Shown: in pieces, positions 26,601-40,401 of the stretch
Layout: each line of letters starts with the position of its first letter
Numbering within the stretch: position 1 is the first letter of the stretch
Origin: Pseudomonadota bacterium
Lineage (GTDB): Bacteria > Myxococcota_A > Polyangia > Polyangiales > Polyangiaceae
DNA: 64,000 bases
Direction of reading: 5' to 3'
NCBI GenBank assembly: GCA_023431345.1
Contig: JAEYWK010000186.1
Coordinates: 38,946 to 102,945, forward strand
Made by a program: the position numbers and the translations under genes
Notes under the pieces: model-generated
Seen by the model: the letters and a program-made list of their open reading frames with translations, nothing else
Database searches by the model: none
What the model was told of the DNA's origin: nothing

Positions 26601-28250
26601 CGTGCCTTCGGTGGTGTCGCCGCTGGTGAGCCCGATCGTCACGTCGGCGGTCGGCTTCGAGTTGAGCACCACGGTGAAGGTCGCTGCCTCGCCCCATTCG
26701 CGCGTCGTCAGCAGCGTCGGGGCCACGACCGTGATACCGGCGCTGTCGTCGTCGGTGTTCGACACGGGCACGTCGACGGGCAAGAGCACGCCGTAAGCCG
26801 CATCCGCGCTGGCGGTGCTGGGCGTTACGGTCACGTGATAGACTTGCATGCCGTCTGCGACATCATCATCGTCGACGCCGGTGACGGTCACCGTCTGCGG
26901 AGCGGCCCACGACACCTCGGTGAACACCAGCTGCGTGGGGCTGACGGTCCCCTCCAGCACGTTCGAGCTGGCGACGTCGAGCAGCACGTCACCGCTCGGC
27001 TTCGAGTTCAGCACGACCGTGAACGTGGCTGCGTCACCCATCTCGTGGGTCACGAGCCCGGTGGCGGGCGCCACCGTGATGCCTGGCGAGTCGTCGTCGA
27101 TGTTGATCACGGCGGCGTCGGGGCCGTCGTGCCCGGCGTAGCCCAAATCGTCGCTCTCGGCGGGATTCGTGCGTATCCAATACGGCTGATTGCCGTCGGC
27201 ACGGTCGTCGTCGACGCCCGTCACCGTGATCAGCTGCGGCGCCATCCAGTTCAGCGGCGTGAAGACGACGCTGTCGGGCCAGGCCGTCCCCTCGCTAGGG
27301 TCGTCGCTCACGAGGGTGATGCGCACGTCGCTCGTGGGAGGAGAGTTGAGCGAGATACCGAACGTGGTCATCTCCCCGTTCTCGCGCGTCATCAACCCAG
27401 TAGCGGGAGTCAGAGTGACGCCGGCAGTGTCGTTGTCTTGGTTCTGAACGATCGCGTCGTCGGCGTCGAAGCCGTTGTAACGCGAGTCCGCGCTCATGGC
27501 CGGCCCCGTGACGACGTGATAGGTCTGCAGCCCGTCCGCGATGTCGTCGTCGACGCCGGTGATCGTCACCATCTGCGGCGCCATCCAGTTCGTGGGCGTG
27601 AAGGTGAGCTGGGCGGGGCTCACGGTGCCCTCCGCCGGATTGTCGCTCGAGAGCGGGATGATGACGTCGGCGGTCGGGGCGTGGTTCAGCACGATCCCGA
27701 GCAGCGCTTCACCGCCAGATTCCGTCGTGAGTAGGCCGGAGGGCGGCAGCAGCGTGATGCCGGCGGTCTCGTCGTCGATGTTCTTGACCTGCACGTCCAG
27801 CGGGTCGAGGCCGAAATACTCGGGATCGTCGCTGGTCGCGGGCGAGGTCTTGATCGTGTAGTTCTGCGTCCCGTCCTCGGCCAGGTCATCGACGCCGGTC
27901 ACCTGCACCAGCTGCGGGGCGTTGAAGTTGTCGGGCGTGAACGTGACGCTGATGGGGCTGACCACGCCCTCGGCCTCGTTGCTGCTCGAAAGCGCGATCA
28001 CCACGATGCTGGTCGGCTGGACCTTGAGCGAGACGGTGAAGGTCGCTTTGCCTCCGCGCTCCGTCGTTATCAGGCCCGCGGTCGGCAGGATCACGATGTT
28101 GCCTTGCTCGTCGGCGCTGGGCCCACCGCCGCTGCCGCCGGGCTTCGTGACGTTGGGATCGTATTTGAAATCCCCGAGCAGGCTGTTACAGCCCGCGAGC
28201 GCGAGGGCCGCGCCCGCTAGCCAGGCTTTGAGCGAATTGAGCGACGCCAT
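23679..28250 (-). CDS. Giant (about 1520 aa) surface lipoprotein made of about 14 tandem Calx-beta-like repeats
   Basis: Lipobox MASLNSLKAWLAGAALALAGCNS. About 105-aa unit repeated throughout: AGITVxPxxGLxTTExGxxATFxVVLNSxPTADVTIxLSSxDxxEGTVSPxxLxFTPxNWxAPQTVTVTGVDDDxxDGxQxYxIxT. Antisense ORFs are spaced about 330-350 nt apart, mirroring the repeat period. Confidence 0.75.
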   Translation of the reverse strand: MASLNSLKAWLAGAALALAGCNSLLGDFKYDPNVTKPGGSGGGPSADEQGNIVILPTAGLITTERGGKATFTVSLKVQPTSIVVIALSSSNEAEGVVSPISVTFTPDNFNAPQLVQVTGVDDLAEDGTQNYTIKTSPATSDDPEYFGLDPLDVQVKNIDDETAGITLLPPSGLLTTESGGEALLGIVLNHAPTADVIIPLSSDNPAEGTVSPAQLTFTPTNWMAPQMVTITGVDDDIADGLQTYHVVTGPAMSADSRYNGFDADDAIVQNQDNDTAGVTLTPATGLMTRENGEMTTFGISLNSPPTSDVRITLVSDDPSEGTAWPDSVVFTPLNWMAPQLITVTGVDDDRADGNQPYWIRTNPAESDDLGYAGHDGPDAAVINIDDDSPGITVAPATGLVTHEMGDAATFTVVLNSKPSGDVLLDVASSNVLEGTVSPTQLVFTEVSWAAPQTVTVTGVDDDDVADGMQVYHVTVTPSTASADAAYGVLLPVDVPVSNTDDDSAGITVVAPTLLTTREWGEAATFTVVLNSKPTADVTIGLTSGDTTEGTVSPPQLVFTPANWSAPQTVTVKGVNDDMQDGDQRYKVFTDDAVSTDPSYSGMVAANVDVSNIDDDTAGFSVWPVNNLLTSENGLTATFQVRLNTEPTADVTIPVSSTNQAEGTVNTAALKFTRLNWGAPQTVTIKGVDDDATADGSQVYRITLGQAISDDANYKLKDPPDVTVTNLDNDQPGILLRNQNNLQTREDGTPATFQIVLQSRPAKNVLIGLSSNKPAEGTVTPALLTFTRDNWAAPQTVTVKGVDDKVADGDQPYRIITAPAQSEDPKYQGIDVADVNVTNLDNDSPGVIVNLPVGGVVTKEPSGTATFTIQLQSQPTMDVTIPLRSSKPTEATVSPSSLLFTAANWNSPRTVTVTGVDDKVADGPQPYLVLIEPASSQDPKYNLRDAADVPATNLDDDSPRITVSPASNDTTEKGMSATFTIVLGSEPKAPVAIPVKSLNTKEGSVSPDSVTFTPLNWNAPQKITITPVDERVQDGDQVYTIDVGVAVSMDAGYAGLDPDDVTLTNIDDDSAGILVSMPAGDTKEDGKSTTFTIVLTSQPTASVAIPISSSDPGEGTPNVASVTFTTTDYNSAKTVTVTGVNDDEVDGDQPYMILLGEASSTDANYSKRDAADVALKNVDDDSAGFTVTPRRGTTGEKASAASFSFTVALTSKPKSDVTVPVSSNDTSEGTVSPTSLVFTPTNWNAAQTITVKGVDDTVQDGDQDYTIVLGEPTTTDADYAQTDPPDVAMSNVDDDMAGIDISPASGPTTETGETATFTIVLRSKPTADVTIPLSSNDETEGTITVDSVTFTPANWNVEQTIEVHGENDKEQDGDQAYKIVTGVVMSQDLNYQGKNPEDVDLLNIDDDMAGIQVSMISGPTTEAGGVATFTVVLTSMPKGLVSIPVSSDDPSEGTAVPENLEFTTSNWSTPQQVVVTGEDDAIDDGDQPYSIKLGKPVTADANYGKIDPPDLMLSNLDDDEPVEE

Positions 28251-29281
28251 CAGAAAGACCCTTTCACGCCCGCGCTGCCGATACCCACGAACGGAGACCA
28301 CTCGACGGAGGCGCGCGCAGGTGCGGGCTTGCCGCCCGACGCCGCGCCGCTACCGCCGAAGACGCGCGGATCGACCAGCAGCAGCAGCGTGCCGGTCGCT
28401 ACCCCCACGCCGCCGACGATGAAGCCGACCGTGGAGAGCCTGCCATACAGGTAGTAGCTGTCCACGTCGCCTCGGTTCGGGCACGCCCTGTCGACGCACG
28501 ACTCGTTCAGCGTGTCGCGCTTGCCGATCGCGAGCGCGCCCGTGACGCCGCCGAGCGCGAGGCCCACGCCGCCGATCGCGAACGCGCTGATGATTGCCGG
28601 CTTGCGCCAGGGCGGGTCGGGCACCTCCGTCGTGATGACGGCGGTCGCGTCTTCCTCGGGCTTGGGCTTGGCGTCGGGCGGCGCGTCTTCCAGCTCGAAC
28701 GCGATGCTGAGCGACTCACCTTCGCGTAGCTCCACCGTCTTCTTCGCGGTGTAAAAGCCTGGTGCCGACGCCCGCACCTCGTGCTTGCCCGGATCGGCGG
28801 GGCGCTTCACGCCGAGTGAGGCCGCCGGGACGGGGACACCGTCGAGCGTGACGACGGGATCGCTCGGGCCCGCGACGGTGATCGTGATCCAAGGCAAGCG
28901 CGGAGGGATGGCCTCGATCTCGACCTTGGCGTCGGCCAGGGCCTTGACCCAGGACGCCGGCGCGCCGTCCGCTACACCCTCGCGGATGATGGTGGAGTAG
29001 TTCTCGTGCGCGTCGACCAGCTTGCCCAGGCCGACCTGAGCGCGCGCGAGATCACGCAGCAGCGTCGGAGCGTGCACGAGCTGCGCCGCGCGCGAGAAGC
29101 GGTCGGCCGCGGTCGCGTAGTCTTTCGCGTTCAACGCGACGTAACCCTCCTGCGCGAGCGTGCGCGCCGTCGCACGATCGGCCGAGCTTGGCTCATCGGC
29201 CAACGCGGCGGCGGGCGCGATCAAGGCTGCGCCGGCGCTGAGAACGAACGTCAAGCTAGCGAGGGAGAGTCGATGCCCCAC
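28250..29281 (-). CDS. Secreted protein with N-terminal TPR-like helical region, PEGA-like beta domain and C-terminal TM anchor
   Basis: Signal peptide MGHRLSLASLTFVLSAGAALIAPAAALA. TPR-like (YATAADRFSRAAQLVHAPTLLRDLARAQVGLGKLVDAHENY). PEGA-like (PGKHEVRASAPGFYTAKKTVELREGESLSIAFEL). TM (AIISAFAIGGVGLALGGVTGALAIG). Stop abuts the start of the repeat lipoprotein. Confidence 0.6.
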   Translation of the reverse strand: MGHRLSLASLTFVLSAGAALIAPAAALADEPSSADRATARTLAQEGYVALNAKDYATAADRFSRAAQLVHAPTLLRDLARAQVGLGKLVDAHENYSTIIREGVADGAPASWVKALADAKVEIEAIPPRLPWITITVAGPSDPVVTLDGVPVPAASLGVKRPADPGKHEVRASAPGFYTAKKTVELREGESLSIAFELEDAPPDAKPKPEEDATAVITTEVPDPPWRKPAIISAFAIGGVGLALGGVTGALAIGKRDTLNESCVDRACPNRGDVDSYYLYGRLSTVGFIVGGVGVATGTLLLLVDPRVFGGSGAASGGKPAPARASVEWSPFVGIGSAGVKGSF

Positions 29282-29397
29282 CTCAGCGGCTTAATTCCAC
29301 GCCGATGCGAGTGCAACTTGCTTTATCAACTAAACGGCCGAGCCGTCGTCCCGCGCATGCGTGTCCGATCGCACCGCTACCATTCGTAGTCATTGTT

Positions 29398-29416
29398 GTG
29401 AGATCTTAACGCTCAC
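29398..29416. promoter_or_regulatory. Inverted repeat GTGAGatcttaacgCTCAC in the comparatively AT-rich divergent intergenic region
   Basis: Read directly. Lies in the 305-bp spacer between the divergent PEGA/Calx operon and the flotillin operon. The spacer is locally AT-richer (ttaattccac, ctttatcaactaaacgg, tcattgttgtgagatcttaacg) than the window. Confidence 0.25.
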
Positions 29417-29586
29417 CCGTGCATGCTAGGCAGCGCGGGTCAGCCGAGCGTCGACTGCCGGCTCGGCCCCCCAGAGCCGTACCGAGAGTCGGGCAGCCAG
29501 AGCGGAACCCGCTCACCTGCCCCGCGGGTTTGGGGGCTTTTTCGAGGCCCTTCGCGGCGTGTTCGCGGCTGGTTTATGCTGGGTAG

Positions 29587-30069
29587 TTGGAGATGAACGA
29601 AAGGTCGCTGCTGGCGCTCGGGGTGCTGCTTGGCGTTGGGTCCGGCAAGCCGCCGAAAGAATGGCTCGAGAGCGCGCACGGCTACCTTCGCGAGAAGCAG
29701 GCGGAGGACCCGATGAACAGCATCGTGATGACGGTGCTCGCGGGGGCCGCCGCCTTCTACGCCGCGGAGCGTTATGAGAACCCCCAGGTCAAGTCGTTCT
29801 TCGACGCGCTGCTTTACGTCTCCACCAACATGTCCGTGGGGTACTCCGACATTTTCGCGCAAACAGACGCGGGCAAGGCCATTGGCTCAGCGCTCATGAC
29901 CTACGGCCCCGCTATGGCTACGCGGGCGTTCGATCCTCCGCACGAGGCCCGGCTCCGCGCCGAAGAGGGTCAGCGCTCGGAGGCTCGGCTGGGCGAGATC
30001 GCGGACAAGCTGGAGGCCATCTTGCTCGAGCTCCGCAGCCACCGAGGCGAAACGTCCGAGCATGGCTGA
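29587..30069 (+). CDS. Small two-TM K+-channel-like pore protein (Ion_trans_2-like) with GYS in place of GYG
   Basis: TM1 IVMTVLAGAAAFYAAE. Pore-helix/filter FFDALLYVSTNMSVGYSDIF (compare TxxTxGYGD). TM2 KAIGSALMTYGPAMATRA. Cytoplasmic helical tail. Stop overlaps the start of the next gene by 8 nt. Confidence 0.55.
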   Translation: MEMNERSLLALGVLLGVGSGKPPKEWLESAHGYLREKQAEDPMNSIVMTVLAGAAAFYAAERYENPQVKSFFDALLYVSTNMSVGYSDIFAQTDAGKAIGSALMTYGPAMATRAFDPPHEARLRAEEGQRSEARLGEIADKLEAILLELRSHRGETSEHG

Positions 30070-30817
30070 AGTCGTCGTCTTGGCGCTGTCGTTTCCGAGC
30101 GTCGTGTTCACGGTGCTGCTCGGCGTCGTGCTCATCTATTGGGCCTTCGTGATGGTGGGGGTGGTCCACATCGGGGAAGGCTCCGAGGGCGCGCTCGACG
30201 GGCACCTCGATGGCGCGACCAAGGGCCTGCTCGAGGGCGCGGCGGACCACGTCGGTCATGCTCACGGGGATCTCGCGCCTTCGGGCGGCGGAGGGGACTT
30301 GGAGCTCGATGACGACGGCGGCGGCGCCCTGGCCGCGATCATGAGCGCGCTCCACCTGCGCTCGGTGCCGGCTACGGTCGTGCTCAGCTTGATCATCACC
30401 TTCTCGTGGTTGGTCAGCGTGGTCGGCATGCAGGTGCTCACGCGGCTTGCGCCCGCCTTGCTCGGCTCGTTCACGTCGCTCGGAGTGCTGCTGCTCGCCT
30501 TGCTGCTGTCGCTGCCGTTGACGTCGATCACGGCGCGCCCTTTGCGCAAGGTGTTCGCGACCAAGCACGCGCCCGCGAAATCGGACTTCATCGGTCGCAC
30601 GTGCACCGTCCGCACCGGCACCGTGACGGCCAAGTTCGGCGAAGCGACCTTGCACGACGGCGGGGCGGGGCTGGTCGTGCGCGTGCGCGTCGAGGACGGC
30701 AAACAGCTCGCGCGAGGCGAGCAGGCGCTCATCGTCGACTACGACGCCGAGCGCGAGAGCTACTTGGTCGAGCCGATGCGCGACGTGCTCGGCGCCAAGC
30801 TCCCTCGCTCGTCGTAG
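30062..30817 (+). CDS. YqiJ/NfeD-like membrane protein (N-terminal TM region plus C-terminal OB-fold)
   Basis: N-terminal TMs (VVVLALSFPSVVFTVLLGVVLIYWAFVMVGVV; second cluster ATVVLSLIITFSWLVSVVGMQVL; SLGVLLLALLLSLPL). C-terminal OB-like FIGRTCTVRTGTVTAKFGEATLHDGGAGLVVRVRVEDGKQLARGEQALIVDYDAERESYLV. Immediately precedes flotillin, like E. coli yqiJK. Confidence 0.65.
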   Translation: MAEVVVLALSFPSVVFTVLLGVVLIYWAFVMVGVVHIGEGSEGALDGHLDGATKGLLEGAADHVGHAHGDLAPSGGGGDLELDDDGGGALAAIMSALHLRSVPATVVLSLIITFSWLVSVVGMQVLTRLAPALLGSFTSLGVLLLALLLSLPLTSITARPLRKVFATKHAPAKSDFIGRTCTVRTGTVTAKFGEATLHDGGAGLVVRVRVEDGKQLARGEQALIVDYDAERESYLVEPMRDVLGAKLPRSS

Positions 30818-30994
30818 CGCGCGTCCGTCGCCCGGGCGTGGTGCGGAAGGCGCTGGCCCTGCTCAGGCGACTAGCGTGAAGACGAGCGTCGCAGCCGCAG
30901 GAGAGCGACGAGCTTCAATAAGCGTCCCCGCTCACCCGTTCAGCCTCTCTACGCCCGCAGACAGCGCTCGCGGCTTCGGGCATTCTTTGCGGCG

Positions 30995-32986
30995 ATGAAC
31001 CTTGGGGATAGCGACATGCTCGGGCTGTATCCGGTGATCGTGGTCGTGGCGATCATCGCCTTCTTGCTGTTCGGCTTGCTGGCGCTGGTGGCGCGCTTCT
31101 ATCGCCAGGTCGATCAGGGGCGGGCGCTCGTCATCAACACCATGCGCTCGGACCCGATCGTGGCGTTCACGGGCGCCGTCGTCTACCCCATCATCAACCG
31201 CGCCGAGACGATGGACCTCTCCGTGAAGACGATCGACATCGATCGTCGCGGCAAGGAGGGCCTGATCTGCAACGACAACATCCGCGCCGACATCAACGTC
31301 ACCTTCTTCGTGCGGGTGAACAAGACCGTCGACGACGTGCTCAAGGTCGCCCAGTCGATCGGCTGCGCGCGCGCCAGCGACCCCGCCGCGCTCGAGGAGC
31401 TGTTCACGGCCAAGTTCGCGGAGGCGCTCAAGACCGTCGGCAAGCACTTCAACTTCGAGGAGCTGTACACCAAGCGCGACGACTTCAAGGACAAGATCAT
31501 CGAGGTCATCGGCAAAGACCTGAACGGCTTCATCCTCGACGACGCCGCCATCGACTACCTCGAGCAGACCCCGCTCGAGCACCTCGACAAAGACAACATC
31601 ATGGATGCCGACGGCATCCGCAAGATCACCGACTTGACGGTGATTCAGAACGTGAAGACCAACGAGCTCCGCCAGAAGGAGCGCATGGAAATGGGCAGTC
31701 AGAACCTGAACGCCGACGAAGCGCTGTTCCGGTTCGAGCAGCGCCGGGCCGAGGCGGAGGCCAAGAAAGAGAAGGAAATCGCGGTCGCCAAGGCCCGCGA
31801 AGAGAACGAGGCCATGCGCGTCGCCAGCGACGAGCGCAAGAAGACGCAGCTCATCGTCACCAAGAACGAAGAAGAGGCGCAGGTGGCGGACCAAGCCAAG
31901 GAGCGCGGCGTCGCTATCGCCACCAAGCACAAGGAGCGCGAGATCGCGGTCGAGAACGAGCGCGTCGAGAAGGCCCGCCAGCTCGAGGTGATCGGGCGTG
32001 AGCGCGAGGTGGCGCTGGGCGGCATCGCGCGTGACAAAGAAGTCGAGGTTCAGAAGAAGGAGATCGCGACGGTGATCCGCGATCGGATCGCGGTCGAGAA
32101 GACCGTCGCGGGCGAGGAGGAACAGATCAAGGACGTGCGACGCCTGGCCGAGGCCAACCGCGAGAAGGAGGTCGTGCGCATCGCGGCCGAAGCGGCGGCG
32201 GCGGAGGTAACGACCAAGCAGGTGAAGGCCGCCCAGGCCTCGGAGGAGGTCGCCAAGATCAAGGCCCGCGAGCGGATCGTGACCGCCGAGGCGGAGCTCG
32301 ACACGGCCGACAAGCTGGCGCGCGCCAAGATTCGCATCGCGGAAGGCGTGCAAGCGGAGGCCGCCGCCGAAGGCCTGGCCCAGGCGCGGGTGAAGGAAGC
32401 CGACGCGGCCGCGAGCGAGAAGCTCGGCTTGACCGAAGCCAAGGTCTCGCTGGAGAAGTTGAGCGCGGAGGCGGCGGGCGAGGAGAAGCAAGGCCTGGCC
32501 AAGGTGCGGGTGCGCGAAGCCGAAGCGGCCGCGGTCGAGAAGCAGGGCGTGGCCGAGGCCGCCGCCATTCGCGAGAAGCTGAGCGCGGAGGCGCAGGGTC
32601 TGGCCCAGAAGGCGGCGTCGATGAAGGCGCTCGACGAGTCGGGCCGCGGCCACGAAGAGTTCCGGCTGCAGGTCGAGAATCAACGCGCGATCGCGATCGA
32701 GTCGCTCAAGGTCAAGAAAGACATCGTGGCCGCGCAGGCGCAGATCCTGGCCGAGGCCATGTCCAAAGCGAAGATCAACATCGTCGGCGGCGACGGCCAA
32801 TTCTTCCAGCGCTTCGTCAGCGCCATCTCGCTCGGCCAATCCGTGGAGGGCGCGCTCGAGCAGAGCGACACGCTGCGTAGCCTCGTCGAAGGGCTCTCCA
32901 GCGGCGAAGGCGGCCCCGCGCTCGCGGCCGCGCTCGAGAAGATGTCCGGCAAAGGCGACGGCAAGGGTCCCAACAAGCGCGCCTAA
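30995..32986 (+). CDS. Flotillin (SPFH/band-7, YqiK/FloT-like) with about 300-aa E/A/K-rich coiled coil
   Basis: N-terminal TM (LYPVIVVVAIIAFLLFGLLALVARF). SPFH core (YRQVDQGRALVINTMRSDPIVAFTGAVVYPIINRAETMDLSVKTIDIDRRGKEGLICNDNIRADINVTFFVRV). Long EAxxK heptad region (KEKEIAVAKAREENEAMR...AEAAAAEVTTKQVKAAQ...). Confidence 0.85.
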   Translation: MNLGDSDMLGLYPVIVVVAIIAFLLFGLLALVARFYRQVDQGRALVINTMRSDPIVAFTGAVVYPIINRAETMDLSVKTIDIDRRGKEGLICNDNIRADINVTFFVRVNKTVDDVLKVAQSIGCARASDPAALEELFTAKFAEALKTVGKHFNFEELYTKRDDFKDKIIEVIGKDLNGFILDDAAIDYLEQTPLEHLDKDNIMDADGIRKITDLTVIQNVKTNELRQKERMEMGSQNLNADEALFRFEQRRAEAEAKKEKEIAVAKAREENEAMRVASDERKKTQLIVTKNEEEAQVADQAKERGVAIATKHKEREIAVENERVEKARQLEVIGREREVALGGIARDKEVEVQKKEIATVIRDRIAVEKTVAGEEEQIKDVRRLAEANREKEVVRIAAEAAAAEVTTKQVKAAQASEEVAKIKARERIVTAEAELDTADKLARAKIRIAEGVQAEAAAEGLAQARVKEADAAASEKLGLTEAKVSLEKLSAEAAGEEKQGLAKVRVREAEAAAVEKQGVAEAAAIREKLSAEAQGLAQKAASMKALDESGRGHEEFRLQVENQRAIAIESLKVKKDIVAAQAQILAEAMSKAKINIVGGDGQFFQRFVSAISLGQSVEGALEQSDTLRSLVEGLSSGEGGPALAAALEKMSGKGDGKGPNKRA

Positions 32987-33010
32987 CGGCCTTCGCCGAG
33001 AGTCGTTTCG

Positions 33011-36000
33011 ATGACTGAGCAGAACGAGCGGAGCCTCGAGGGCGGCTCCTACGAGGTCATTCGGCGGCGCCTGCTCGAGAGGGCGACCGAGCTTTCGGCG
33101 ACCGCGGAGGCGCTGAACCAGAAGCGCAAGGCGCTGTTCGGCGGGGGTGAGCTCACGCTCGTCGCGACGGAGCGCGTTCGCACCGAGCACAACTGTACTC
33201 CGCGCGACGTGGTCAGCGTCGCGGGGCAGCTCTTGTTCGGGTTCGAGGTGTTCATCGGCTTGAAGAGCGAGACGCGCGTCCCCGACGTGCTCAGCTTGTT
33301 CAAGTTCGAGAAGAACGGCGAAGGCTACGACCTGGCGCAGCAGTCGTTCGAGGGCCCCGGCGCCTACCTGGCCGACCCCGAGTTCGACAAGCAGTTCCGA
33401 GACTCCTTTCGCTACTACAAGGAAGCGCGCCTGCTGCAGCTGCTGCGCACGGAGCAGCGGCTGCTCGTGGCGCTGCAGATCGGCGCCCGCCCCAGCGACT
33501 CCAAGATCTTCCGCTTCGCCATCGACGGCAAGGGGCGCGTCACTTTCATGGATGCGCGTGGCGAGGACGACTACAAGCCGCCGCGCCGGCACCCGTTCGA
33601 GTGGACGCCGACGCGCCGCGAGGACCAGGTCGCGGGCAAGCATCCGCACATCAGCGTGCTCAACGAGGTCTTCGTCGAGACCATCAACGGCGATCTCACG
33701 ATCAAGATCGAGAACAACACCGAGGACGGCCTCGGTGTCTACCGCGAGCCCGTCGACGATCCGAACCAGACCCTCGATGACGCCGAGATCGGCTACGCCC
33801 GCGTCGCGGGCCTGATCTTGCTCAAGATTCGGCCCTTCCGCGAGCAGAAGACGCGCTACCTCGTCTACAACCCGCGCACCGAAGAAGTGCTGCGCGTCGA
33901 CGCGCTGGGCGTCGCCTGCGTCGAGCTACCGGAAGACCACGGCTTGATCTTCCCCGGCGGCTACTACCTGACGACGGGCGAGCACAAGCTGTTCGACGGC
34001 GACAGCGAGGGTCTCGAGTTTCGTCGCAGCATCAGCTCCCCGAACGGGGAGGACGTGCTCTACGTTTTTTACCGCGTCGAGCAGGGCGAGTACGAGCTCT
34101 TGCCGTACAACCTGATCGGCAAAGAGGTCAAAAACCCCATCCGCTGCCACGGCTACAGCCTCTTCCCCGACGGCACGATGGTGGTGTTTCGCGCCGAGAG
34201 CGAGCCGACGCGCGTGCACCCCGTGCAGATCTGGTTGACGCCCTTCACGACCGCCGAGTTCGCGGCCTCCGCGCCGACCGACGGCTCGTACTTGGCCAAG
34301 GTCGGTAACGCGGCGCTCGTCAGCGGCATCAGCGAGCTGCTCAGCATTCGCAAGCTGGCGCAGACCGAGAAGCCGACGCGCCGCACCTTCGAGGACTTGG
34401 TGCGCGCGGTGCGCAAGGCGATCGATACGCACTACTGGCTCGGTCACGCGGAGCTGGGCGGCCTGCTCGAAACCGTGCGCGAGCTGTTCAAGAGCTCGGA
34501 GCTGATCGTCGATGAGTTCGAGAAGCAGCTCGCGCTCGAGCGCACGGCGCGCCAAGCCATCGACGAGGCCGAGACGGCTCAGGCTGCCCTGCTAGCGCAG
34601 GTTCGGCCGAGCGAGCTCAAGTCGGTCGAGGCGTACTTGAGCGGGCTCTCCGAGCTGAAGCGCCAGCGCGGCAGGCTGATCACGCTCAAGGAGCTGCGCG
34701 CCATCGACGTCGCGCGCGTCGAGGCGCTCGAGAGCGGCGTGGCCGAGCGCTTCGGGGAGGTGAGCCGCGCTTGCGTCGACTTCTTCCTGGCCGAGAACGC
34801 CTTCCAGCCCCTGCTGGATCGGCTCGACGCCGTCGTGAGCCAGGTCGGGCAAGCCCACAAGACGACGGAGCTCGGGCCGCTGCGCCAGGAGCTCGACGCG
34901 GCGCACGAGGGGCTCACGCTGCTGAGCGAGACCATCGCCGGCTTGCCCATCGACGACCCCACCGTACGTACCCAAATCTTGGACGGTACGAGCTCGGCGT
35001 TCGCCCAGCAAAATCGGGCGCGGGCCGTGCTCGACGGCCGTCAGCGGGAGCTGGCCGCCAGCGAGGGCCGCGCCGAGTTCGGCGTGCAGTTCAAGCTCTT
35101 GAGCCAGAGCGTCACGAGCGCGCTCGCGCTGGCGGTGACGCCGGAAGCGTGCGACGAGCAGCTGGGGCGCTTGATGCTGCAGCTCGAGGAGCTCGAGGGC
35201 CGCTTTGGCGAGCTCGACGAGTTCTCGCTGCAGCTGGCGGAGAAGCGCGAGGAAGTGCTGGACGCGGTCGCGGCCAAGCGCCAGCTGCTGGTCGAGGAGC
35301 GTCAGCGCCGCGCCCAGTCGCTCGCGACCGCAGCGGAGCGAGTTCTGGGCGGCATCGTGCGCCGGGCCCAGAGCGTCACGAGCGCGGACGAGCTCAACTC
35401 CTACTTCGCGTCCGACGCGATGGTGCACAAGCTGGGTGAGCTGTCGGCCGACCTGCGCAAGCTGGGCGACTCGGTGCGCGCCGACGAGCTGGACTCCAAG
35501 CTGAAGAGCGCCAAGCAGAACGCGCTCCGGGCGCTGCGCGACAAGACCGACCTGCTCGAAGACGGCGGCGCCATCATTCGCCTCGGGCCGCACCGCTTCA
35601 CCGTCAACACGCGCCCGCTCGAGCTCGCGATCGTCCCTCGCGACGGCGTGCTCAACGTGCACCTGACCGGAACCGATTTCTACGAGCCGCTCTCGAACCC
35701 GCTCTTGGACGCGGCGCGCGAGCTGTGGGACCAAGAGCTCGTCGCGGAGACGCGCGAGGTGTACCGCGCGGAGTACTTGGCGGTGAGCTTGCTCTTGGAG
35801 GCGGAGGCCGGCGCCCCCGGGCGGAGCGTGCCGGAGCTGGAGCAGGCGGCGCGCGAAGGCAAGCTGCTCGAGGTCGTGCGGCAGGCCGCCGCCGAGCGCA
35901 TCGACGAAGGCCACGAGCGCGGCGTGCACGACGCCGACGCCGCGGGCATCCTGGCCAAGCTCCTCGGCCTGCTGAAGCTCGCCGGAGGTCTGCGCCATTC

Positions 36001-38530
36001 ACCGCGCGCGCGCGGCCTGGCCTGGCTGTACTGGTTGGGCCTGCCCGCGGAGCGCAAGGAGCTGGTCGAGCGCCGCGCGCAGAGCGCGGGCCGCCTCCGT
36101 GAGCGCCTGAAAGACTCGAGCGCCGAGCAGGAGCTCGCGCGCGATCTGCTTCACGGCATCGGCGACGCTTTGCAGCAGCTCGGCCTGGAGTCCGAGCGGC
36201 CGCTGGCGCGCTTCGCCGCTCGCTACCTCGTCACGGAGATAGCGACTGACCGACCGCAGTTCACGGAGTCGAGCGCGGCGGAGGAGCTGCGCCGCGAATT
36301 CACGTCGTACCTCGAGCAGTCGGGGGCCGCGCGCGGCTTCCAGGATGACCTGCGCGCGCTGGAGCGGCACCCCGCCGAGCGGCTGCGCGTCGCGCTGTCT
36401 TACGTGGACGCCTTCACGCGCCAGCTCGGGCGGGGCGCCGAGTACCGGCTCGAGCTGGCGGCGCGCTTGGTGGGCGAGGGGACGCTCGAGTTCGCGGTCT
36501 CTACGGCGCTGGTCGACGGCTCGGTGCACGACCTGCTCGGCGCTCATCCGCGGGTGGTGAGTCGCACCCTCTCGTTCACGCTGTGTGAGCTGCTCGAGCG
36601 CGTGACGACGTTCATCGAAGATCGCGCGCCCCGCTTCCGCGCCTTCCGCAGCCTGAAGACGGAGCTCGCGGCGCGCGCCCGCGAGCGGCTCAGGCTGAAC
36701 GAATACCTGCCGCGCGTGCTCACCTCCTTCGTGCGTAATCGCTTGATCGACCAAGTGTATCTGCCGCTGGTCGGCGCGAACCTCGCCAAGCAGCTGGGCG
36801 CGGCGGGCGCGGCCAAACGCACGGATCAGATGGGCTTGCTCTTGCTCGTGTCGCCCCCCGGCTACGGCAAGACCACGCTCATGGAGTATGTGGCGAGCAA
36901 GCTGGGCCTCGTGTTCGTGAAGGTGAACGGGCCCGCGCTAGGCACCGACGTGCACTCCTTGGACCCGAGCGAAGCGCCCAACGCCACCGCGCGCCAAGAG
37001 GTCGAGAAGATCAACCTGGCGCTCGAGATGGGCAACAACGTGATGCTGTATCTCGACGATATTCAGCACACCCACCCCGAGCTCTTGCAGAAGTTCATCT
37101 CGCTGTGCGACGCGCAGCGCCGCATCGAGGGCGTGTGGAACGGCAAGACCCGCACCTACGACCTGCGGGGTAAGAAATTCTGCATTTGCATGGCCGGCAA
37201 CCCGTACACGGAGAGCGGCGCGCGCTTTCAGATCCCGGACATGCTCGCGAACCGCGCCGATACCTATAATTTGGGCGATATCCTGGACGGAAAGCAGGAC
37301 GCCTTCGCGCTCAGCTACCTCGAGAACGCGCTCATTTCGAACACGACGCTGGCCCCGCTCGCCGGGCGCGACCCGGCCGACGTCTACAAGCTCATCGGCA
37401 TGGCGCGCGGCGACGACGTCGCGCTGAGCGAGCTGAGCCACGGCTACTCGAGCGCGGAGGCGCAAGAGATCGTGGAGGTTTTCAAGCGCCTGTTCAAGGT
37501 GCAAGACGTGCTGTTGCGCGTGAACCTCGAGTACATCGCCTCCGCGTCGCAAGACGATCGCTACCGGAGCGAGCCGCCCTTCAAGCTGCAGGGCAGCTAC
37601 CGCAACATGGCCAAGCTGACCGAGAAGGTGGTGGCGGCCATGAACGACGCCGAGCTAGAGCGGTTGATCGACGATCACTACGCCAGCGAAGCGCAGACGT
37701 TGACCAAGGGCGCCGAACAAAATCTGCTCAAGCTGGCCGAGATGCGCGGTCGCCTCAGCCCCGAGCAGAGCGCGCGCTGGAGCGAGATCAAGGAGGCGTT
37801 CGGCCGCGTGCAGCGCATGGGCGGTAGCGAGGCGGATCCGGTGACGCGCGTCACGGGCACGCTGTCGGGCCTCGACGTCCAGCTCAAGGGCATTCGCGAA
37901 GCGATCGGCGCGGCCGCGGCCGCGGCCAGCGCCGGGAGCGGCGGCGATCTGGCGGCGCTGGCCAAGAGCTTGACCGAGCTCGGCCGACCTCGCGTCGAGG
38001 TGCGGCTGGAAGACGAGGGTAACGACGCGCTGATGACGCTGTTCAACCGGCAAACCGAGCTGCTGGAGCAAGCGCTCTCGGCGCTCGGAGAGCGCGCTCG
38101 GTCGCCGGTCGCGAGCGCAGCCAGCGGCGACGAGCAGAAGCTGTCGGAGCTGCTCGGCGCGCTCGGCAAGCTCTCGCGGCAAATCGAGCAAGGCGCCGAT
38201 GGCAGAGCGCGCCGCGTCGACGTCGAGCTGGGGGTGGCGGGTCCCACCAATCTGTATCGACCGCTTTCGAGCCGTGACGTCCTCGCCGGCGGCGTCTTCG
38301 TGGCGACTTACGAGAAGCTGCCGCCGCTGGGCGCGGACGTGCGGGTGGCGCTGCGCTTCCCGACAGGCCCGAGCTGCGAGCTGACGGGCAAGGTCGCGTG
38401 GGTGCGCGACAGGCTCGGCGACGACGCTCCGCCAGGCTTTGGTGTGCGCTTCGCGGAGGTATCGGCCGAGGCGCGCGAGCTGCTTCGGGCCTACGCTGAA
38501 GCGCGCGAGCCCATGCTGCACGACGATTGA
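33011..38530 (+). CDS. Giant (1839 aa) flotillin-operon protein: helical/coiled-coil N-terminal 1200 aa, AAA+ (MoxR/AAA_5-like) ATPase core, C-terminal PilZ-like domain
   Basis: Walker A LLLLVSPPGYGKTTLMEYV at about 36861. Walker B/sensor NVMLYLDDIQ...RIEGVWNGKTRTYDLRGKKFCICMAGNPYTE. C-terminal RARRVDVELGVAGPTNLYRPLSSRDVLAGGVFVATYEKLPPLGADVRVALRFPTGPSCELTGKVAWVRDR...PGFGVRFAEV resembles PilZ (RxxxR ... D-x-x-x-GG ... VVW ... PGxGVxF). 25-nt gap after flotillin. Confidence 0.7.
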   Translation: MTEQNERSLEGGSYEVIRRRLLERATELSATAEALNQKRKALFGGGELTLVATERVRTEHNCTPRDVVSVAGQLLFGFEVFIGLKSETRVPDVLSLFKFEKNGEGYDLAQQSFEGPGAYLADPEFDKQFRDSFRYYKEARLLQLLRTEQRLLVALQIGARPSDSKIFRFAIDGKGRVTFMDARGEDDYKPPRRHPFEWTPTRREDQVAGKHPHISVLNEVFVETINGDLTIKIENNTEDGLGVYREPVDDPNQTLDDAEIGYARVAGLILLKIRPFREQKTRYLVYNPRTEEVLRVDALGVACVELPEDHGLIFPGGYYLTTGEHKLFDGDSEGLEFRRSISSPNGEDVLYVFYRVEQGEYELLPYNLIGKEVKNPIRCHGYSLFPDGTMVVFRAESEPTRVHPVQIWLTPFTTAEFAASAPTDGSYLAKVGNAALVSGISELLSIRKLAQTEKPTRRTFEDLVRAVRKAIDTHYWLGHAELGGLLETVRELFKSSELIVDEFEKQLALERTARQAIDEAETAQAALLAQVRPSELKSVEAYLSGLSELKRQRGRLITLKELRAIDVARVEALESGVAERFGEVSRACVDFFLAENAFQPLLDRLDAVVSQVGQAHKTTELGPLRQELDAAHEGLTLLSETIAGLPIDDPTVRTQILDGTSSAFAQQNRARAVLDGRQRELAASEGRAEFGVQFKLLSQSVTSALALAVTPEACDEQLGRLMLQLEELEGRFGELDEFSLQLAEKREEVLDAVAAKRQLLVEERQRRAQSLATAAERVLGGIVRRAQSVTSADELNSYFASDAMVHKLGELSADLRKLGDSVRADELDSKLKSAKQNALRALRDKTDLLEDGGAIIRLGPHRFTVNTRPLELAIVPRDGVLNVHLTGTDFYEPLSNPLLDAARELWDQELVAETREVYRAEYLAVSLLLEAEAGAPGRSVPELEQAAREGKLLEVVRQAAAERIDEGHERGVHDADAAGILAKLLGLLKLAGGLRHSPRARGLAWLYWLGLPAERKELVERRAQSAGRLRERLKDSSAEQELARDLLHGIGDALQQLGLESERPLARFAARYLVTEIATDRPQFTESSAAEELRREFTSYLEQSGAARGFQDDLRALERHPAERLRVALSYVDAFTRQLGRGAEYRLELAARLVGEGTLEFAVSTALVDGSVHDLLGAHPRVVSRTLSFTLCELLERVTTFIEDRAPRFRAFRSLKTELAARARERLRLNEYLPRVLTSFVRNRLIDQVYLPLVGANLAKQLGAAGAAKRTDQMGLLLLVSPPGYGKTTLMEYVASKLGLVFVKVNGPALGTDVHSLDPSEAPNATARQEVEKINLALEMGNNVMLYLDDIQHTHPELLQKFISLCDAQRRIEGVWNGKTRTYDLRGKKFCICMAGNPYTESGARFQIPDMLANRADTYNLGDILDGKQDAFALSYLENALISNTTLAPLAGRDPADVYKLIGMARGDDVALSELSHGYSSAEAQEIVEVFKRLFKVQDVLLRVNLEYIASASQDDRYRSEPPFKLQGSYRNMAKLTEKVVAAMNDAELERLIDDHYASEAQTLTKGAEQNLLKLAEMRGRLSPEQSARWSEIKEAFGRVQRMGGSEADPVTRVTGTLSGLDVQLKGIREAIGAAAAAASAGSGGDLAALAKSLTELGRPRVEVRLEDEGNDALMTLFNRQTELLEQALSALGERARSPVASAASGDEQKLSELLGALGKLSRQIEQGADGRARRVDVELGVAGPTNLYRPLSSRDVLAGGVFVATYEKLPPLGADVRVALRFPTGPSCELTGKVAWVRDRLGDDAPPGFGVRFAEVSAEARELLRAYAEAREPMLHDD

Positions 38531-38568
38531 GCGCCCGCCGACCTTCCGCGCGGCGGTGATGAGCCCAC

Positions 38569-39480
38569 TCAGGGCTGGTAGGTATAGAGCTCGACCCAGT
38601 CGTAGTAAGCCTTGGCGGAGCCGGTGGCGTCCGTGACGGCGCCGGCCCAAGCTGCGCTCGAGGACGCCCAAATCGTCAGCAGCACGTTTTGAGGCAGCTT
38701 CATGCGATCGATGTGCTCGGTCCAGCTGCGGACCTCGGCGCCGTCGATGGAGAAGCGCGCGCCCTGGGGTGTCCACTCGATCTCGTAGTCGTGGAAATCG
38801 GCGCTCGGATCGAAGCCGACGGCAGCAATCGTAGGCGAGGCGGTCGGCTTGACCGAGGTCGTGACGGGCGGCGCGGGCGGCGCCCCCAGATACACCATGG
38901 TGTTGAGCTGCACCTTGCCGGTTTCGCCCAGGCACTCGATGTCGAGCTCGTTCCAGTCGTCGGCCGGCCACGGCGTGTAGATGGTGACGAGCGACGACAC
39001 CACCGCGGGCCCGGACGCGAACTTGATGCGCGCGCGCACGCGGCCATAGGTGAGTGTGTCCGTCGACCGCACCTCGGCCCCGAAGAACTTCTTGATGGCT
39101 CCCGCGTCGTCGACGGTGCCCTCGGGCGCGGGCAGGAGGCTTATCACCAGCTGCCCGGCTTCGACGACGGCCGCTCGTGGCGAGAACAGCGCCAAGTTGC
39201 TGTCCCAGGAGTGGGTCATGAGCTGCCAGCGAGCCGAGTCCAGGGTGTCGAAGTCGTCTCGAAACAAGAGCTCGAAGCTGCCGGGCTGCGCGGGGGCTCC
39301 GCCGCCGCTGCCGCCGCTGTCGGCGCCCCCGCTGGTCGCTGGAGCGCCGCCCCCCGCCGCGCCCGCTGCGCCCGCTGCGGCCGCCGCGAGGCCTCCATCA
39401 TCGCAGCCGAGTAGCACGAGCGCCGCGGACGCCAGCAGAATCCGCGCGGAAGCCAGGGGAGCGACGAGGGAGGGACGCAT
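38569..39480 (-). CDS. Secreted glycoside hydrolase family 16 (beta-glucanase/laminarinase-like) lipoprotein
   Basis: Internal start MRPSLVAPLASARILLASAALVLLGCDD (lipobox). The upstream 180 codons of the tabulated ORF are Arg-rich junk. GH16 catalytic motif NELDIECLGE. Jelly-roll spacing (FELLFRDDFDTLDSARWQL ... YYDWVELYTY). Confidence 0.75.
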   Translation of the reverse strand: MRPSLVAPLASARILLASAALVLLGCDDGGLAAAAAGAAGAAGGGAPATSGGADSGGSGGGAPAQPGSFELLFRDDFDTLDSARWQLMTHSWDSNLALFSPRAAVVEAGQLVISLLPAPEGTVDDAGAIKKFFGAEVRSTDTLTYGRVRARIKFASGPAVVSSLVTIYTPWPADDWNELDIECLGETGKVQLNTMVYLGAPPAPPVTTSVKPTASPTIAAVGFDPSADFHDYEIEWTPQGARFSIDGAEVRSWTEHIDRMKLPQNVLLTIWASSSAAWAGAVTDATGSAKAYYDWVELYTYQP

Positions 39481-39582
39481 GGGACCCACCGAAGCTGGCC
39501 TCGGCGCCACACGCGGGCATCTCACTTTTTGCGTGATCGCCCAGGCCCCCCCGCTGCCCGCCTCCGCGCCGCCACCTGACCA

Positions 39583-40401
39583 TTGACGACGAGACCGACG
39601 ATCAGGCGCTGCTATGCTCTGGCCGTGACCGCGGCGGCGCTGTACCAGCCTTTCCCGATGCTGCCGGGCAGGCGCGCGCAGGCGTGGCGCCATCAACCGT
39701 CGTTTCTCCGCCCCCGTCATTTTCACCGTGAGCCCGAGCTCAACTTGGTGGCGCGCGGCGAGGCTCGGTTGGCCGTCGGCGAGAAGGTCGCGACGGTCTC
39801 CGCGGGTGACTGCGTGCTGTTCGCGCCGGGGCAGGACCATCAGCTGCTCGAGGCCAGCGCCGATCTGGAGCTGTTCGCGATCGCGCTCACGCCCGAGCTC
39901 GCGGCGCGCGCCCGCTCGCTCTCGTGCGCCGCGCGGCGATTGACGCCGGCGGAGCTGAGCGAAGCGGCGGCCAGGCTCGGCGCCGCCGGTGAGCTGCGTG
40001 ACTCTGCGGCCGTGGAGCAAGCGATCGTGCCGCTGTTCGAAGCCCAGCCTGCGACGGGGCTCCGCCGGAGCACCTGCTTGAGCCTGCAGCGGCTACTGCT
40101 GGAGCCGGCCGTCAGCGCGACGACGCTCGCGGCTCACGCGCGCACGACGCCGAGCGAGCTGAGCCGGCACTTTCGGCGCGACGTGGGCGTGCGCTTCGTC
40201 GAGTATCGGGCGCGCCTGCGCTTGATGGCGTTCGTGGCCGAGGTAGACGCGGGGCGTTCGCTGACGCGGGCGGCCCTCGACGCCGATTTCGGCAGCTACG
40301 CGCAGTGCCATCGCGTGTTTTCGCGCACCCTCGGCTGTAGCCCGCAGCAATACTTCGCTCAGCGTCGCCGTGACATCGACCGAGCGGTGGCGGTGCGCTG
40401 A
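39583..40401 (+). CDS. AraC-family transcriptional regulator (cupin-like N-domain plus HTH_AraC)
   Basis: C-terminal HTH LAAHARTTPSELSRHFRRDVGVRFVEYRARLRLMAFVAEV...FGSYAQCHRVFSRTLGCSPQQYF. N-terminal cupin-like HFHREPELNLVARGEARLAVGEKVATVSAGDCVLFAPGQDHQ. Start may be the internal M at 39658. Confidence 0.7.
   Translation: MTTRPTIRRCYALAVTAAALYQPFPMLPGRRAQAWRHQPSFLRPRHFHREPELNLVARGEARLAVGEKVATVSAGDCVLFAPGQDHQLLEASADLELFAIALTPELAARARSLSCAARRLTPAELSEAAARLGAAGELRDSAAVEQAIVPLFEAQPATGLRRSTCLSLQRLLLEPAVSATTLAAHARTTPSELSRHFRRDVGVRFVEYRARLRLMAFVAEVDAGRSLTRAALDADFGSYAQCHRVFSRTLGCSPQQYFAQRRRDIDRAVAVR

Follow-up and report, generated by a model that had tools for sequence, protein, structure and literature searches.

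We describe a giant ATPase gene that follows a flotillin gene in a 64,000-nucleotide (nt) stretch of contig JAEYWK010000186.1 from a Polyangiaceae bacterium (the whole stretch, about 68% G+C, is called the window below). The gene lies at 33011..38530 (+) and encodes an AAA+ protein of 1839 amino acids (aa). The family to which it belongs is already catalogued, as Pfam DUF3686 and under an NCBI product name, and the window protein is a PilZ-tailed, lineage-specific variant of it. We consider it probable that this protein is the soluble, ATP-driven giant subunit of a membrane module that also comprises a YqiJ/NfeD-like protein and a flotillin, and that the tail it carries in Polyangiales is a PilZ domain of the adaptor type.

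Conserved gene order is the principal evidence for such a module. We took the best 80 of at least 566 relatives confirmed in species-representative genomes, together with the window's own contig, translated all open reading frames (ORFs) of these 81 loci and searched them with the window's neighbouring proteins. In 78 of the 81 loci the gene directly before the giant one, and on its strand, is flotillin-like; the two mostly overlap or stand less than 150 bp apart. One of the exceptions sits at a contig edge. In 76 of the 81 loci the flotillin gene is itself preceded by a YqiJ-like gene. The resulting cassette, all on one strand, runs from the YqiJ/NfeD-like gene through the YqiK-type flotillin to the giant ATPase. 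It occurs in Myxococcota, Actinomycetota (Nonomuraea, Streptomyces, Amycolatopsis, Micromonospora), Planctomycetota, a betaproteobacterial metagenome-assembled genome (MAG; Aquabacterium) and Gammaproteobacteria (Pseudomonas, Xanthomonas/Lysobacter relatives, Pseudoalteromonas, Xenorhabdus, Methylomonas); Deinococcus, Hymenobacter and Proteus join the list through plasmid records. Because the flotillin neighbour is kept at this frequency across at least four phyla, we read it as a rule of the family, so that an AAA+ gene right after a flotillin gene is, judged by gene order, a signature of the giant ATPases and not an oddity of this locus. The original prediction, made from the letters of the window, had called the combination of flotillin, AAA+ enzyme and PilZ-like tail unusual; this holds for the tail, which is confined to one Polyangiales/Labilithrix clade, and not for the pairing of flotillin and AAA+ enzyme. 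The cassette genes and the parts of the giant protein are as follows.

30062..30817, + strand: YqiJ/NfeD-like inner-membrane protein, 251 aa, first gene of the cassette (profile match, hydrophobic segments)
30995..32986, + strand: YqiK-type flotillin (SPFH), 663 aa, with an N-terminal membrane segment, an SPFH domain and a long E/A-rich coiled region
33011..38530, + strand: giant cytoplasmic AAA+ protein of the DUF3686 family, 1839 aa, ATG start, ORF confirmed
33089..34435, + strand: DUF3686 domain, residues 27-475, propeller-like, after a long helix at residues 13-43 (Pfam PF12458 and AlphaFold)
34436..36700, + strand: putative helical scaffold, residues 476-1230, including DUF7902 (model to about residue 700, composition beyond)
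36803..37270, + strand: AAA+ core, about residues 1265-1420 (Pfam AAA_5 / AAA, conserved motifs)
37271..37930, + strand: conserved family-specific region, residues 1421-1640 (many invariant columns)
37931..38200, + strand: variable linker, residues 1641-1730 (gappy, length-variable and poorly conserved in the alignment)
38201..38527, + strand: C-terminal PilZ-fold domain, residues 1731-1839 (six strands and a C-terminal helix, without c-di-GMP motifs; c-di-GMP, cyclic di-GMP)

The identities of the two membrane partners were established mainly by profile comparison. The flotillin gene ends 24 nt upstream of the giant gene, in agreement with the earlier statement that the giant protein is encoded right after a flotillin. 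A profile of 26 flotillin orthologs matched E. coli YqiK with an hhalign probability of 99.9% (E 3.1e-33, 398 columns). NCBIfam FloT gave E 1.5e-5, Pfam Band_7 matched 3 of the 26 orthologs, the protein has an N-terminal hydrophobic segment, and PDB sequence and profile searches with the flotillin returned no match. For the first cassette gene, a profile of 17 orthologs matched E. coli YqiJ (hhalign probability 95.2%, E 2.5e-8), pairwise BLASTP against the same protein gave E 9e-5, and the Pfam YqiJ_N match was weak (E 0.024). A YqiK-homologous flotillin behind a YqiJ-like gene is the arrangement of SPFH-NfeD operons of the YqiJK type. In plasmid pQBR103 the cassette genes carry the RefSeq labels hypothetical protein, "SPFH domain-containing protein" and "DNA repair ATPase".

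Translation bore out the predicted ORF at 33011..38530 (+), and the G+C content at third codon positions (GC3) of the giant gene, 0.91, is the value expected for a real gene at 68% GC. The AAA+ strings quoted from the sequence are all present, once each in the 1839-aa protein: SPPGYGKTT at residues 1281-1289 (nt 36851-36877), MLYLDDIQ at 1345-1352 (nt 37043-37066) and ICMAGNPYTE at 1392-1401 (nt 37184-37213). Each of the tail landmarks was likewise found once, namely RARR at 1732-1735, LSSRDVLAGGVFV at 1752-1764, VAWV at 1795-1798 and PGFGVRF at 1808-1814. The strings do not occur by chance, since AAA, AAA_5 and PilZ all score above the Pfam gathering score (29.6 against 21.2 bits, 27.9 against 22 and 30.3 against 22.5, respectively). 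A search for membrane segments in the giant protein found no 19-residue hydrophobic window over threshold, whereas the YqiJ-like and flotillin partners both have one or more.

The AAA+ region is the best-conserved part of the whole family. The AAA_5 alignment begins at Walker A and reaches the sensor-1 region (residues 1277-1400; profile positions 2-125 of 139), and that of classical AAA (PF00004) covers residues 1277-1353 only. Walker A has the GxxxxGK[ST] pattern of AAA+ ATPases (GYGKT at 1284-1288, GYGKTT at 1284-1289 within SPPGYGKTT), Walker B reads YLDD at 1347-1350, and a candidate sensor-1 residue (N1397) and a candidate arginine finger (R1415), both invariant, lie in or just past the stretch aligned to AAA_5. 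All four elements show no variation among 34 close sequences, and their conservation in an alignment of 77 is at least 90%. Similarly, GLLLLVSPPGYGKTTLMEY, MLYLDDIQH, MAGNPYTE and PDMLANRAD are invariant or nearly so in the 34 close sequences and mostly at least 90% conserved in the 77 diverse ones. Walker B is of the form hhhhDD (D1349, D1350) instead of hhhhDE, with the same conservation in close and diverse homologs, so that Asp takes the place of the usual catalytic Glu throughout the family, and the DD pair aligns with the DE of RavA. Sequence and profile matches in the PDB, to p97/VCP, NVL, RuvB and Rpt3, were limited to the Walker A region; searches of PDB sequences with the whole protein and with the tail alone returned P-loop matches or nothing, and alignment profiles alone were informative.

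The original prediction had placed a MoxR/AAA_5-like ATPase near residues 1280-1440. The AAA_5 part stands, since the Pfam score exceeds its cut-off and the motifs are present, and "AAA_5-like" is a fair label for the module as far as alignments go. MoxR proteins (AAA_5) are compact, of about 300-500 aa, and have an adjacent partner with a VWA domain. The likeness to MoxR/RavA consists of the AAA_5 alignment and a pattern seen by eye, D-[DE]-I-x-x-x-x-P ... A-x-x-N-P-x-x-E ... R; the differences are that the giant protein is about 4-6 times larger, has no VWA-domain partner gene among the scanned neighbours and carries DD, not DE, in Walker B. We therefore see no support for assigning the module to the MoxR subfamily, given the size of the protein, the missing VWA gene and the weak hhalign result against RavA.

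Conservation continues beyond the AAA+ core. The invariant columns of residues 1421-1640 include EPPFKLQGSYRNM at 1521-1533, and Pfam and PDB searches with this region gave no match; it possibly comprises the lid and C-terminal domains of the module. In distant relatives, the tblastn match to the query nearly always stops at about residues 1610-1735, mostly at 1620-1660.

The N-terminal part of the protein is also characteristic of the family. PF12458 matches over its full length (profile positions 1-448 of 448, E 7.6e-186, 618 bits), DUF7902 matches residues 596-680 (nt 34796-35050, E 5e-24, 84.8 bits), and the set of PF12458, DUF7902 and AAA was found in all of the 120 best homologs. An AlphaFold model of residues 1-700, built from the 77-sequence alignment, has a predicted local distance difference test score (pLDDT) of 91 and a predicted template modelling score (pTM) of 0.78; in this model a helix at 13-43 is followed by about 25 beta strands in 49-410 and by long helices from 427 to 699. 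The top Foldseek matches of this model in the PDB are nearly all beta-propellers (Elp1, paraoxonase, YncE, tricorn, Ski8, WDR91), with 8-11% identity and low TM-scores. Because the matches are mostly beta-propellers, though at such low identity and TM-score, we read DUF3686 as a propeller-like domain with no close solved relative, on the basis of the model. The content of E, R, L and A is 34% in residues 27-475 against 52-53% in 476-595 and 681-1230, and from this composition we infer that residues 700-1230 are helical. Thus, the earlier description of the first 1200 or so residues as helical and E/R/L/A-rich is correct for about 430-1230 only and fails for 27-475, where DUF3686 lies and the model is rich in beta strands. 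The further statement that these residues hold no recognisable motif is contradicted by DUF3686 and DUF7902.

The giant protein belongs to a large family. Homolog clusters number at least 4857 at E<=1e-10, and 396 clusters at 50% identity were found at E<=1e-30; the query of the representative-cluster search was residues 1200-1839. In a neighbour-joining tree of the AAA core, without bootstrap, the loci group by phylum, which suggests vertical descent. Locus L013, from a MAG labelled Clostridia, pairs with a deltaproteobacterial MAG, the two being sister to the actinobacterial clade; this placement may reflect a binning or taxonomy error of the public record. At NCBI the family bears the name "DNA repair ATPase", and JGI on occasion labels members "MoxR-like ATPase/Tfp pilus assembly protein PilZ". 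Among open-access papers and bioRxiv preprints, we found none on the DUF3686 family or its link to flotillins, and the giant ATPase is not mentioned in a paper on SPFH evolution or in a study of P. aeruginosa SPFH proteins.

The C-terminal tail is a PilZ domain by sequence and by predicted structure, as its original description as PilZ-like implied. The Pfam PilZ (PF07238) match covers residues 1755-1829, profile positions 28-100 of 102. With 35 sequences, residues 1714-1839 gave a confident structure model (pLDDT 88.5, pTM 0.80), which consists of a disordered lead-in, of which the first 16 residues have a pLDDT below 50, followed by six strands and a C-terminal helix. The tail thus combines a Pfam score above the gathering score with the six-stranded beta-barrel and C-terminal helix of the PilZ superfamily. 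Two structure-comparison methods identify it as PilZ and place it closest to XAC1133/XC1028, which are also its nearest relatives in sequence. The Foldseek ranking against the PDB begins with Xanthomonas PilZ proteins (7lkm_D, E 3.2e-4; 3dsg), followed by a tetrameric PilZ (3ph1), Alg44 and MotI. No second PilZ-like paralog was found within the window.

The motifs of c-di-GMP binding are missing from this domain. The PilZ domains that bind c-di-GMP are defined by RxxxR and D/NxSxxG, and the canonical ones (YcgR, Alg44, PA4608, MotI, BcsA) carry both (PMC3131395), whereas the query tail carries neither. RxxxR belongs to the flexible stretch ahead of strand 1, and D/NxSxxG to the turn that joins strands 2 and 3. 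In the query, the arginines stand in the string G-R-A-R-R-V-D-V, with no R at i and i+4 and thus with the wrong RARR spacing, and its second motif is DVLAGG, with leucine in place of serine. Among 118 homologous tails, [DN]xSxxG was found in none and no tail has both motifs. Where the motif has serine, these tails carry diverse residues (S, R, M, A, T, D and others), the RxxxR string occurs in 48 of the 118 at shifting positions of the upstream arginine-rich linker, and of the query's arginines before strand 1 only the last is conserved in the clade, moderately. The Xanthomonas/Pseudomonas PilZ proteins of the XAC1133 type do not bind c-di-GMP and act through PilB and FimX (PMC8389850). With this non-binding XAC1133/PA2960 type the tail shares the lack of both motifs, in addition to being closest to it in sequence and structure. 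The difference lies in context: XAC1133, XC1028 and PA2960, which serve as adaptors in the PilB-PilZ-FimX complex, are free-standing proteins of about 117 aa in type IV pilus control, whereas here the domain is fused to the C-terminus of an 1839-aa protein in a flotillin operon. No PilB or FimX homologs were found among the scanned neighbouring genes.

Additionally, the tail is restricted in its distribution. A local hidden Markov model of the tail matched, among the 81 loci, only L001-L005, L008, L012 and L024, all Polyangiales/Labilithrix, and in the representative search 4 of the top 150 clusters align through the end of the query. In the AAA-core tree the PilZ-bearing loci form one clade nested in Myxococcota and are therefore consistent with one acquisition of the tail. 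Actinobacterial homologs end about 40 residues past the conserved core, and gammaproteobacterial and Myxococcia homologs have tails of 100-380 aa with no detectable domain; a Pfam search of 46 non-PilZ C-terminal tails found no shared domain. Examples of such tails are L063 12819-13754, L065 12523-13674 and L006 12810-13472. By this comparison, lineage-specific additions appear to concentrate at the C-terminus.

On the reading that we prefer, the three cassette proteins would act together. The propeller and the scaffold would dock on a cytoplasmic flotillin/NfeD assembly or on client proteins, and the AAA+ ring, fuelled by ATP, would remodel the assembly, take it apart or pull out clients. SPFH scaffolds are known to partner AAA+ enzymes, as in FtsH-HflK/C and the m-AAA protease-prohibitin pair, and by analogy the module could be a non-proteolytic counterpart of the FtsH-HflK/C pairing. 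The likeness to both systems is that of an SPFH membrane scaffold genetically coupled to an AAA+ ATPase; unlike FtsH, the giant ATPase is soluble, measures 1839 aa, has a propeller and a helical scaffold but no protease domain or membrane anchor, and is only a putative physical partner of the SPFH protein. The Polyangiales/Labilithrix tail, being of the XAC1133 type, would most likely be a protein-protein adaptor or an autoregulatory domain, and could respond to c-di-GMP only indirectly, via a partner. A more far-reaching version is possible but doubtful in our view: YqiK-type flotillins would have a dedicated giant AAA+ partner in several phyla, the three proteins including the NfeD-like one would form an undescribed SPFH-AAA+ membrane-remodelling machine, and the Polyangiales tail would link the machine indirectly to the c-di-GMP network through a FimX-like partner.

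Several points weigh against the module as we propose it. In E. coli K-12, whose yqiJ-yqiK genes are homologous to the first two cassette genes and share their order, no giant ATPase lies downstream and the sib/ibs loci stand there instead; YqiK-type flotillins can therefore work without the ATPase. We infer the association of the giant ATPase with the flotillin from gene order, and the predicted structures comprise residues 1-700 and 1714-1839 of the giant protein. The AAA+ clade is not firmly placed either: in hhalign the family profile matches RavA weakly (probability 4.7%), and AAA and AAA_5 score equally. The DD of Walker B may indicate that the protein is a slow nucleotide switch instead of a motor. 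With respect to the tail, RARR lies in the disordered segment before strand 1 at the correct spacing to the DVLAGG turn, and the tail may bind c-di-GMP in a non-canonical manner.

The last point bears on the alternative that survives best, in which the PilZ tail would be a true receptor and would turn the AAA+ enzyme on or off with the c-di-GMP level. The domain has the PilZ fold and exceeds the Pfam cut-off, its arginines R1732, R1734 and R1735 stand in a flexible region about 21 residues ahead of D1756-x-x-x-G-G1761, and myxobacteria are rich in PilZ receptors, with the tail giving a sub-threshold match to TIGR02266. Nevertheless, direct binding is unlikely because both motifs are absent and the nearest relative is the non-binding XAC1133/XC1028 pair. 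The Pfam alignment, moreover, starts at profile position 28 and omits the RxxxR region. The original prediction's "c-di-GMP-receptor-like tail" is thus not sustained, given the altered motifs of the query, the missing D/NxSxxG in all 118 relatives and the non-binding type of the nearest one, and we leave the receptor switch a small chance.

We regard it as less likely still that the cassette defends against phages or acts in abortive infection, the giant NTPase being the sensor and a membrane protein the effector. The great size of the P-loop protein, its propeller and variable C-terminal tails and the adjoining membrane proteins would suit such a system, the cassette is present on some megaplasmids such as pQBR103, and there are faint matches, restricted to the P-loop, to IetA/IteA, BrxF and TRIP13 models. 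However, PADLOC 2.0 matched the giant protein over about 30 residues of the P-loop only, at E>=0.0037, and the flotillin not at all. The phylogeny tracks taxonomy, the genes flanking the cassette in the window are ordinary (GH16, AraC, PPK2), and members of the family were found in few plasmid records (13 of 72,556) and in no phage records. The remaining alternative, a DNA repair ATPase that acts on DNA and adjoins a flotillin by coincidence, is very improbable: it draws on the Pfam DUF3686 description and the NCBI product name as its sole support, beside a weak RuvB similarity in the P-loop region, and it is opposed by strict synteny with two membrane proteins across phyla, by Pfam and profile searches that detected no DNA-binding, nuclease or helicase domain, by the extent of the RuvB similarity (about 45 residues around Walker A, common to p97 and Rpt3) and by open-access papers and bioRxiv preprints, among which none was found in support of the name.

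One further gene of the window adjoins the cassette.

29587..30069, + strand: pore-loop (K+-channel-like) protein, 160 aa (Pfam Ion_trans_2 E 8.4e-8; filter-like SVGYSD)

The selectivity filter of K+ channels usually reads TVGYGD. The pore-loop gene ends 8 nt inside the YqiJ-like gene, an overlap suggestive of co-translation with the cassette. A homolog was found near the cassette in 8 of the 81 loci, all Myxococcota and sometimes on the opposite strand, and by this distribution the gene is a lineage-specific neighbour outside the universal cassette. Divergently upstream lie genes for a 1540-aa Calx-beta-containing protein, 23679-28301 (-), and a PEGA-domain protein, 28250-29281 (-). Downstream follow a GH16 glycosidase, 38569-40020 (-), with a shorter call in the public contig L001, an AraC regulator and a two-domain PPK2 polyphosphate kinase. 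None of the Calx-beta, PEGA, GH16, AraC and PPK2 genes is conserved with the cassette. Antisense ORFs of 438-905 aa stand opposite the flotillin and giant genes, at 30932-33649 (-), 34592-35998 (-) and 37655-38971 (-). They look like the shadow ORFs typical of high-GC DNA, because they failed the GC3 test. A promoter and terminator scan of 29200-38800 gave no signal over chance.

Other neighbours recur outside the Myxococcota. Upstream of the cassette, and on its strand, 18 gammaproteobacterial loci have a DUF2170 gene (YjfI-like, E 6e-46) and a short, weakly PspA/IM30-like gene (E 4e-4, below the cut-off), as at L027 3845-4960. In pQBR103 (L084 1-1429), a DUF1190 gene and a glutathionylspermidine-synthase-family gene precede the cassette. 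The genes that precede the gammaproteobacterial and pQBR103 cassettes match members of the E. coli yjfIJKLMC cluster (L085), a cluster to which the PspA-family protein YjfJ belongs. These yjf-type neighbours hint, at the level of gene order, at a link between the cassette and PspA-type membrane-stress genes. Furthermore, in some gammaproteobacterial loci (7-8) rhomboid protease and PLD-like genes lie downstream of the giant gene on the same strand (L028 13319-14652).

In summary, the product name "DNA repair ATPase" has been widely propagated for this family without visible basis. The tail of the window protein illustrates that a Pfam PilZ match on a large enzyme need not mean a c-di-GMP receptor, as it falls into the class of adaptors that do not bind this molecule. 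What bacterial flotillins do is still under debate, and a strictly syntenic, ATP-driven partner would offer a testable handle on the question, in a cassette that is present in tractable genera including Myxococcus, Streptomyces and Pseudomonas, as well as on plasmid pQBR103.

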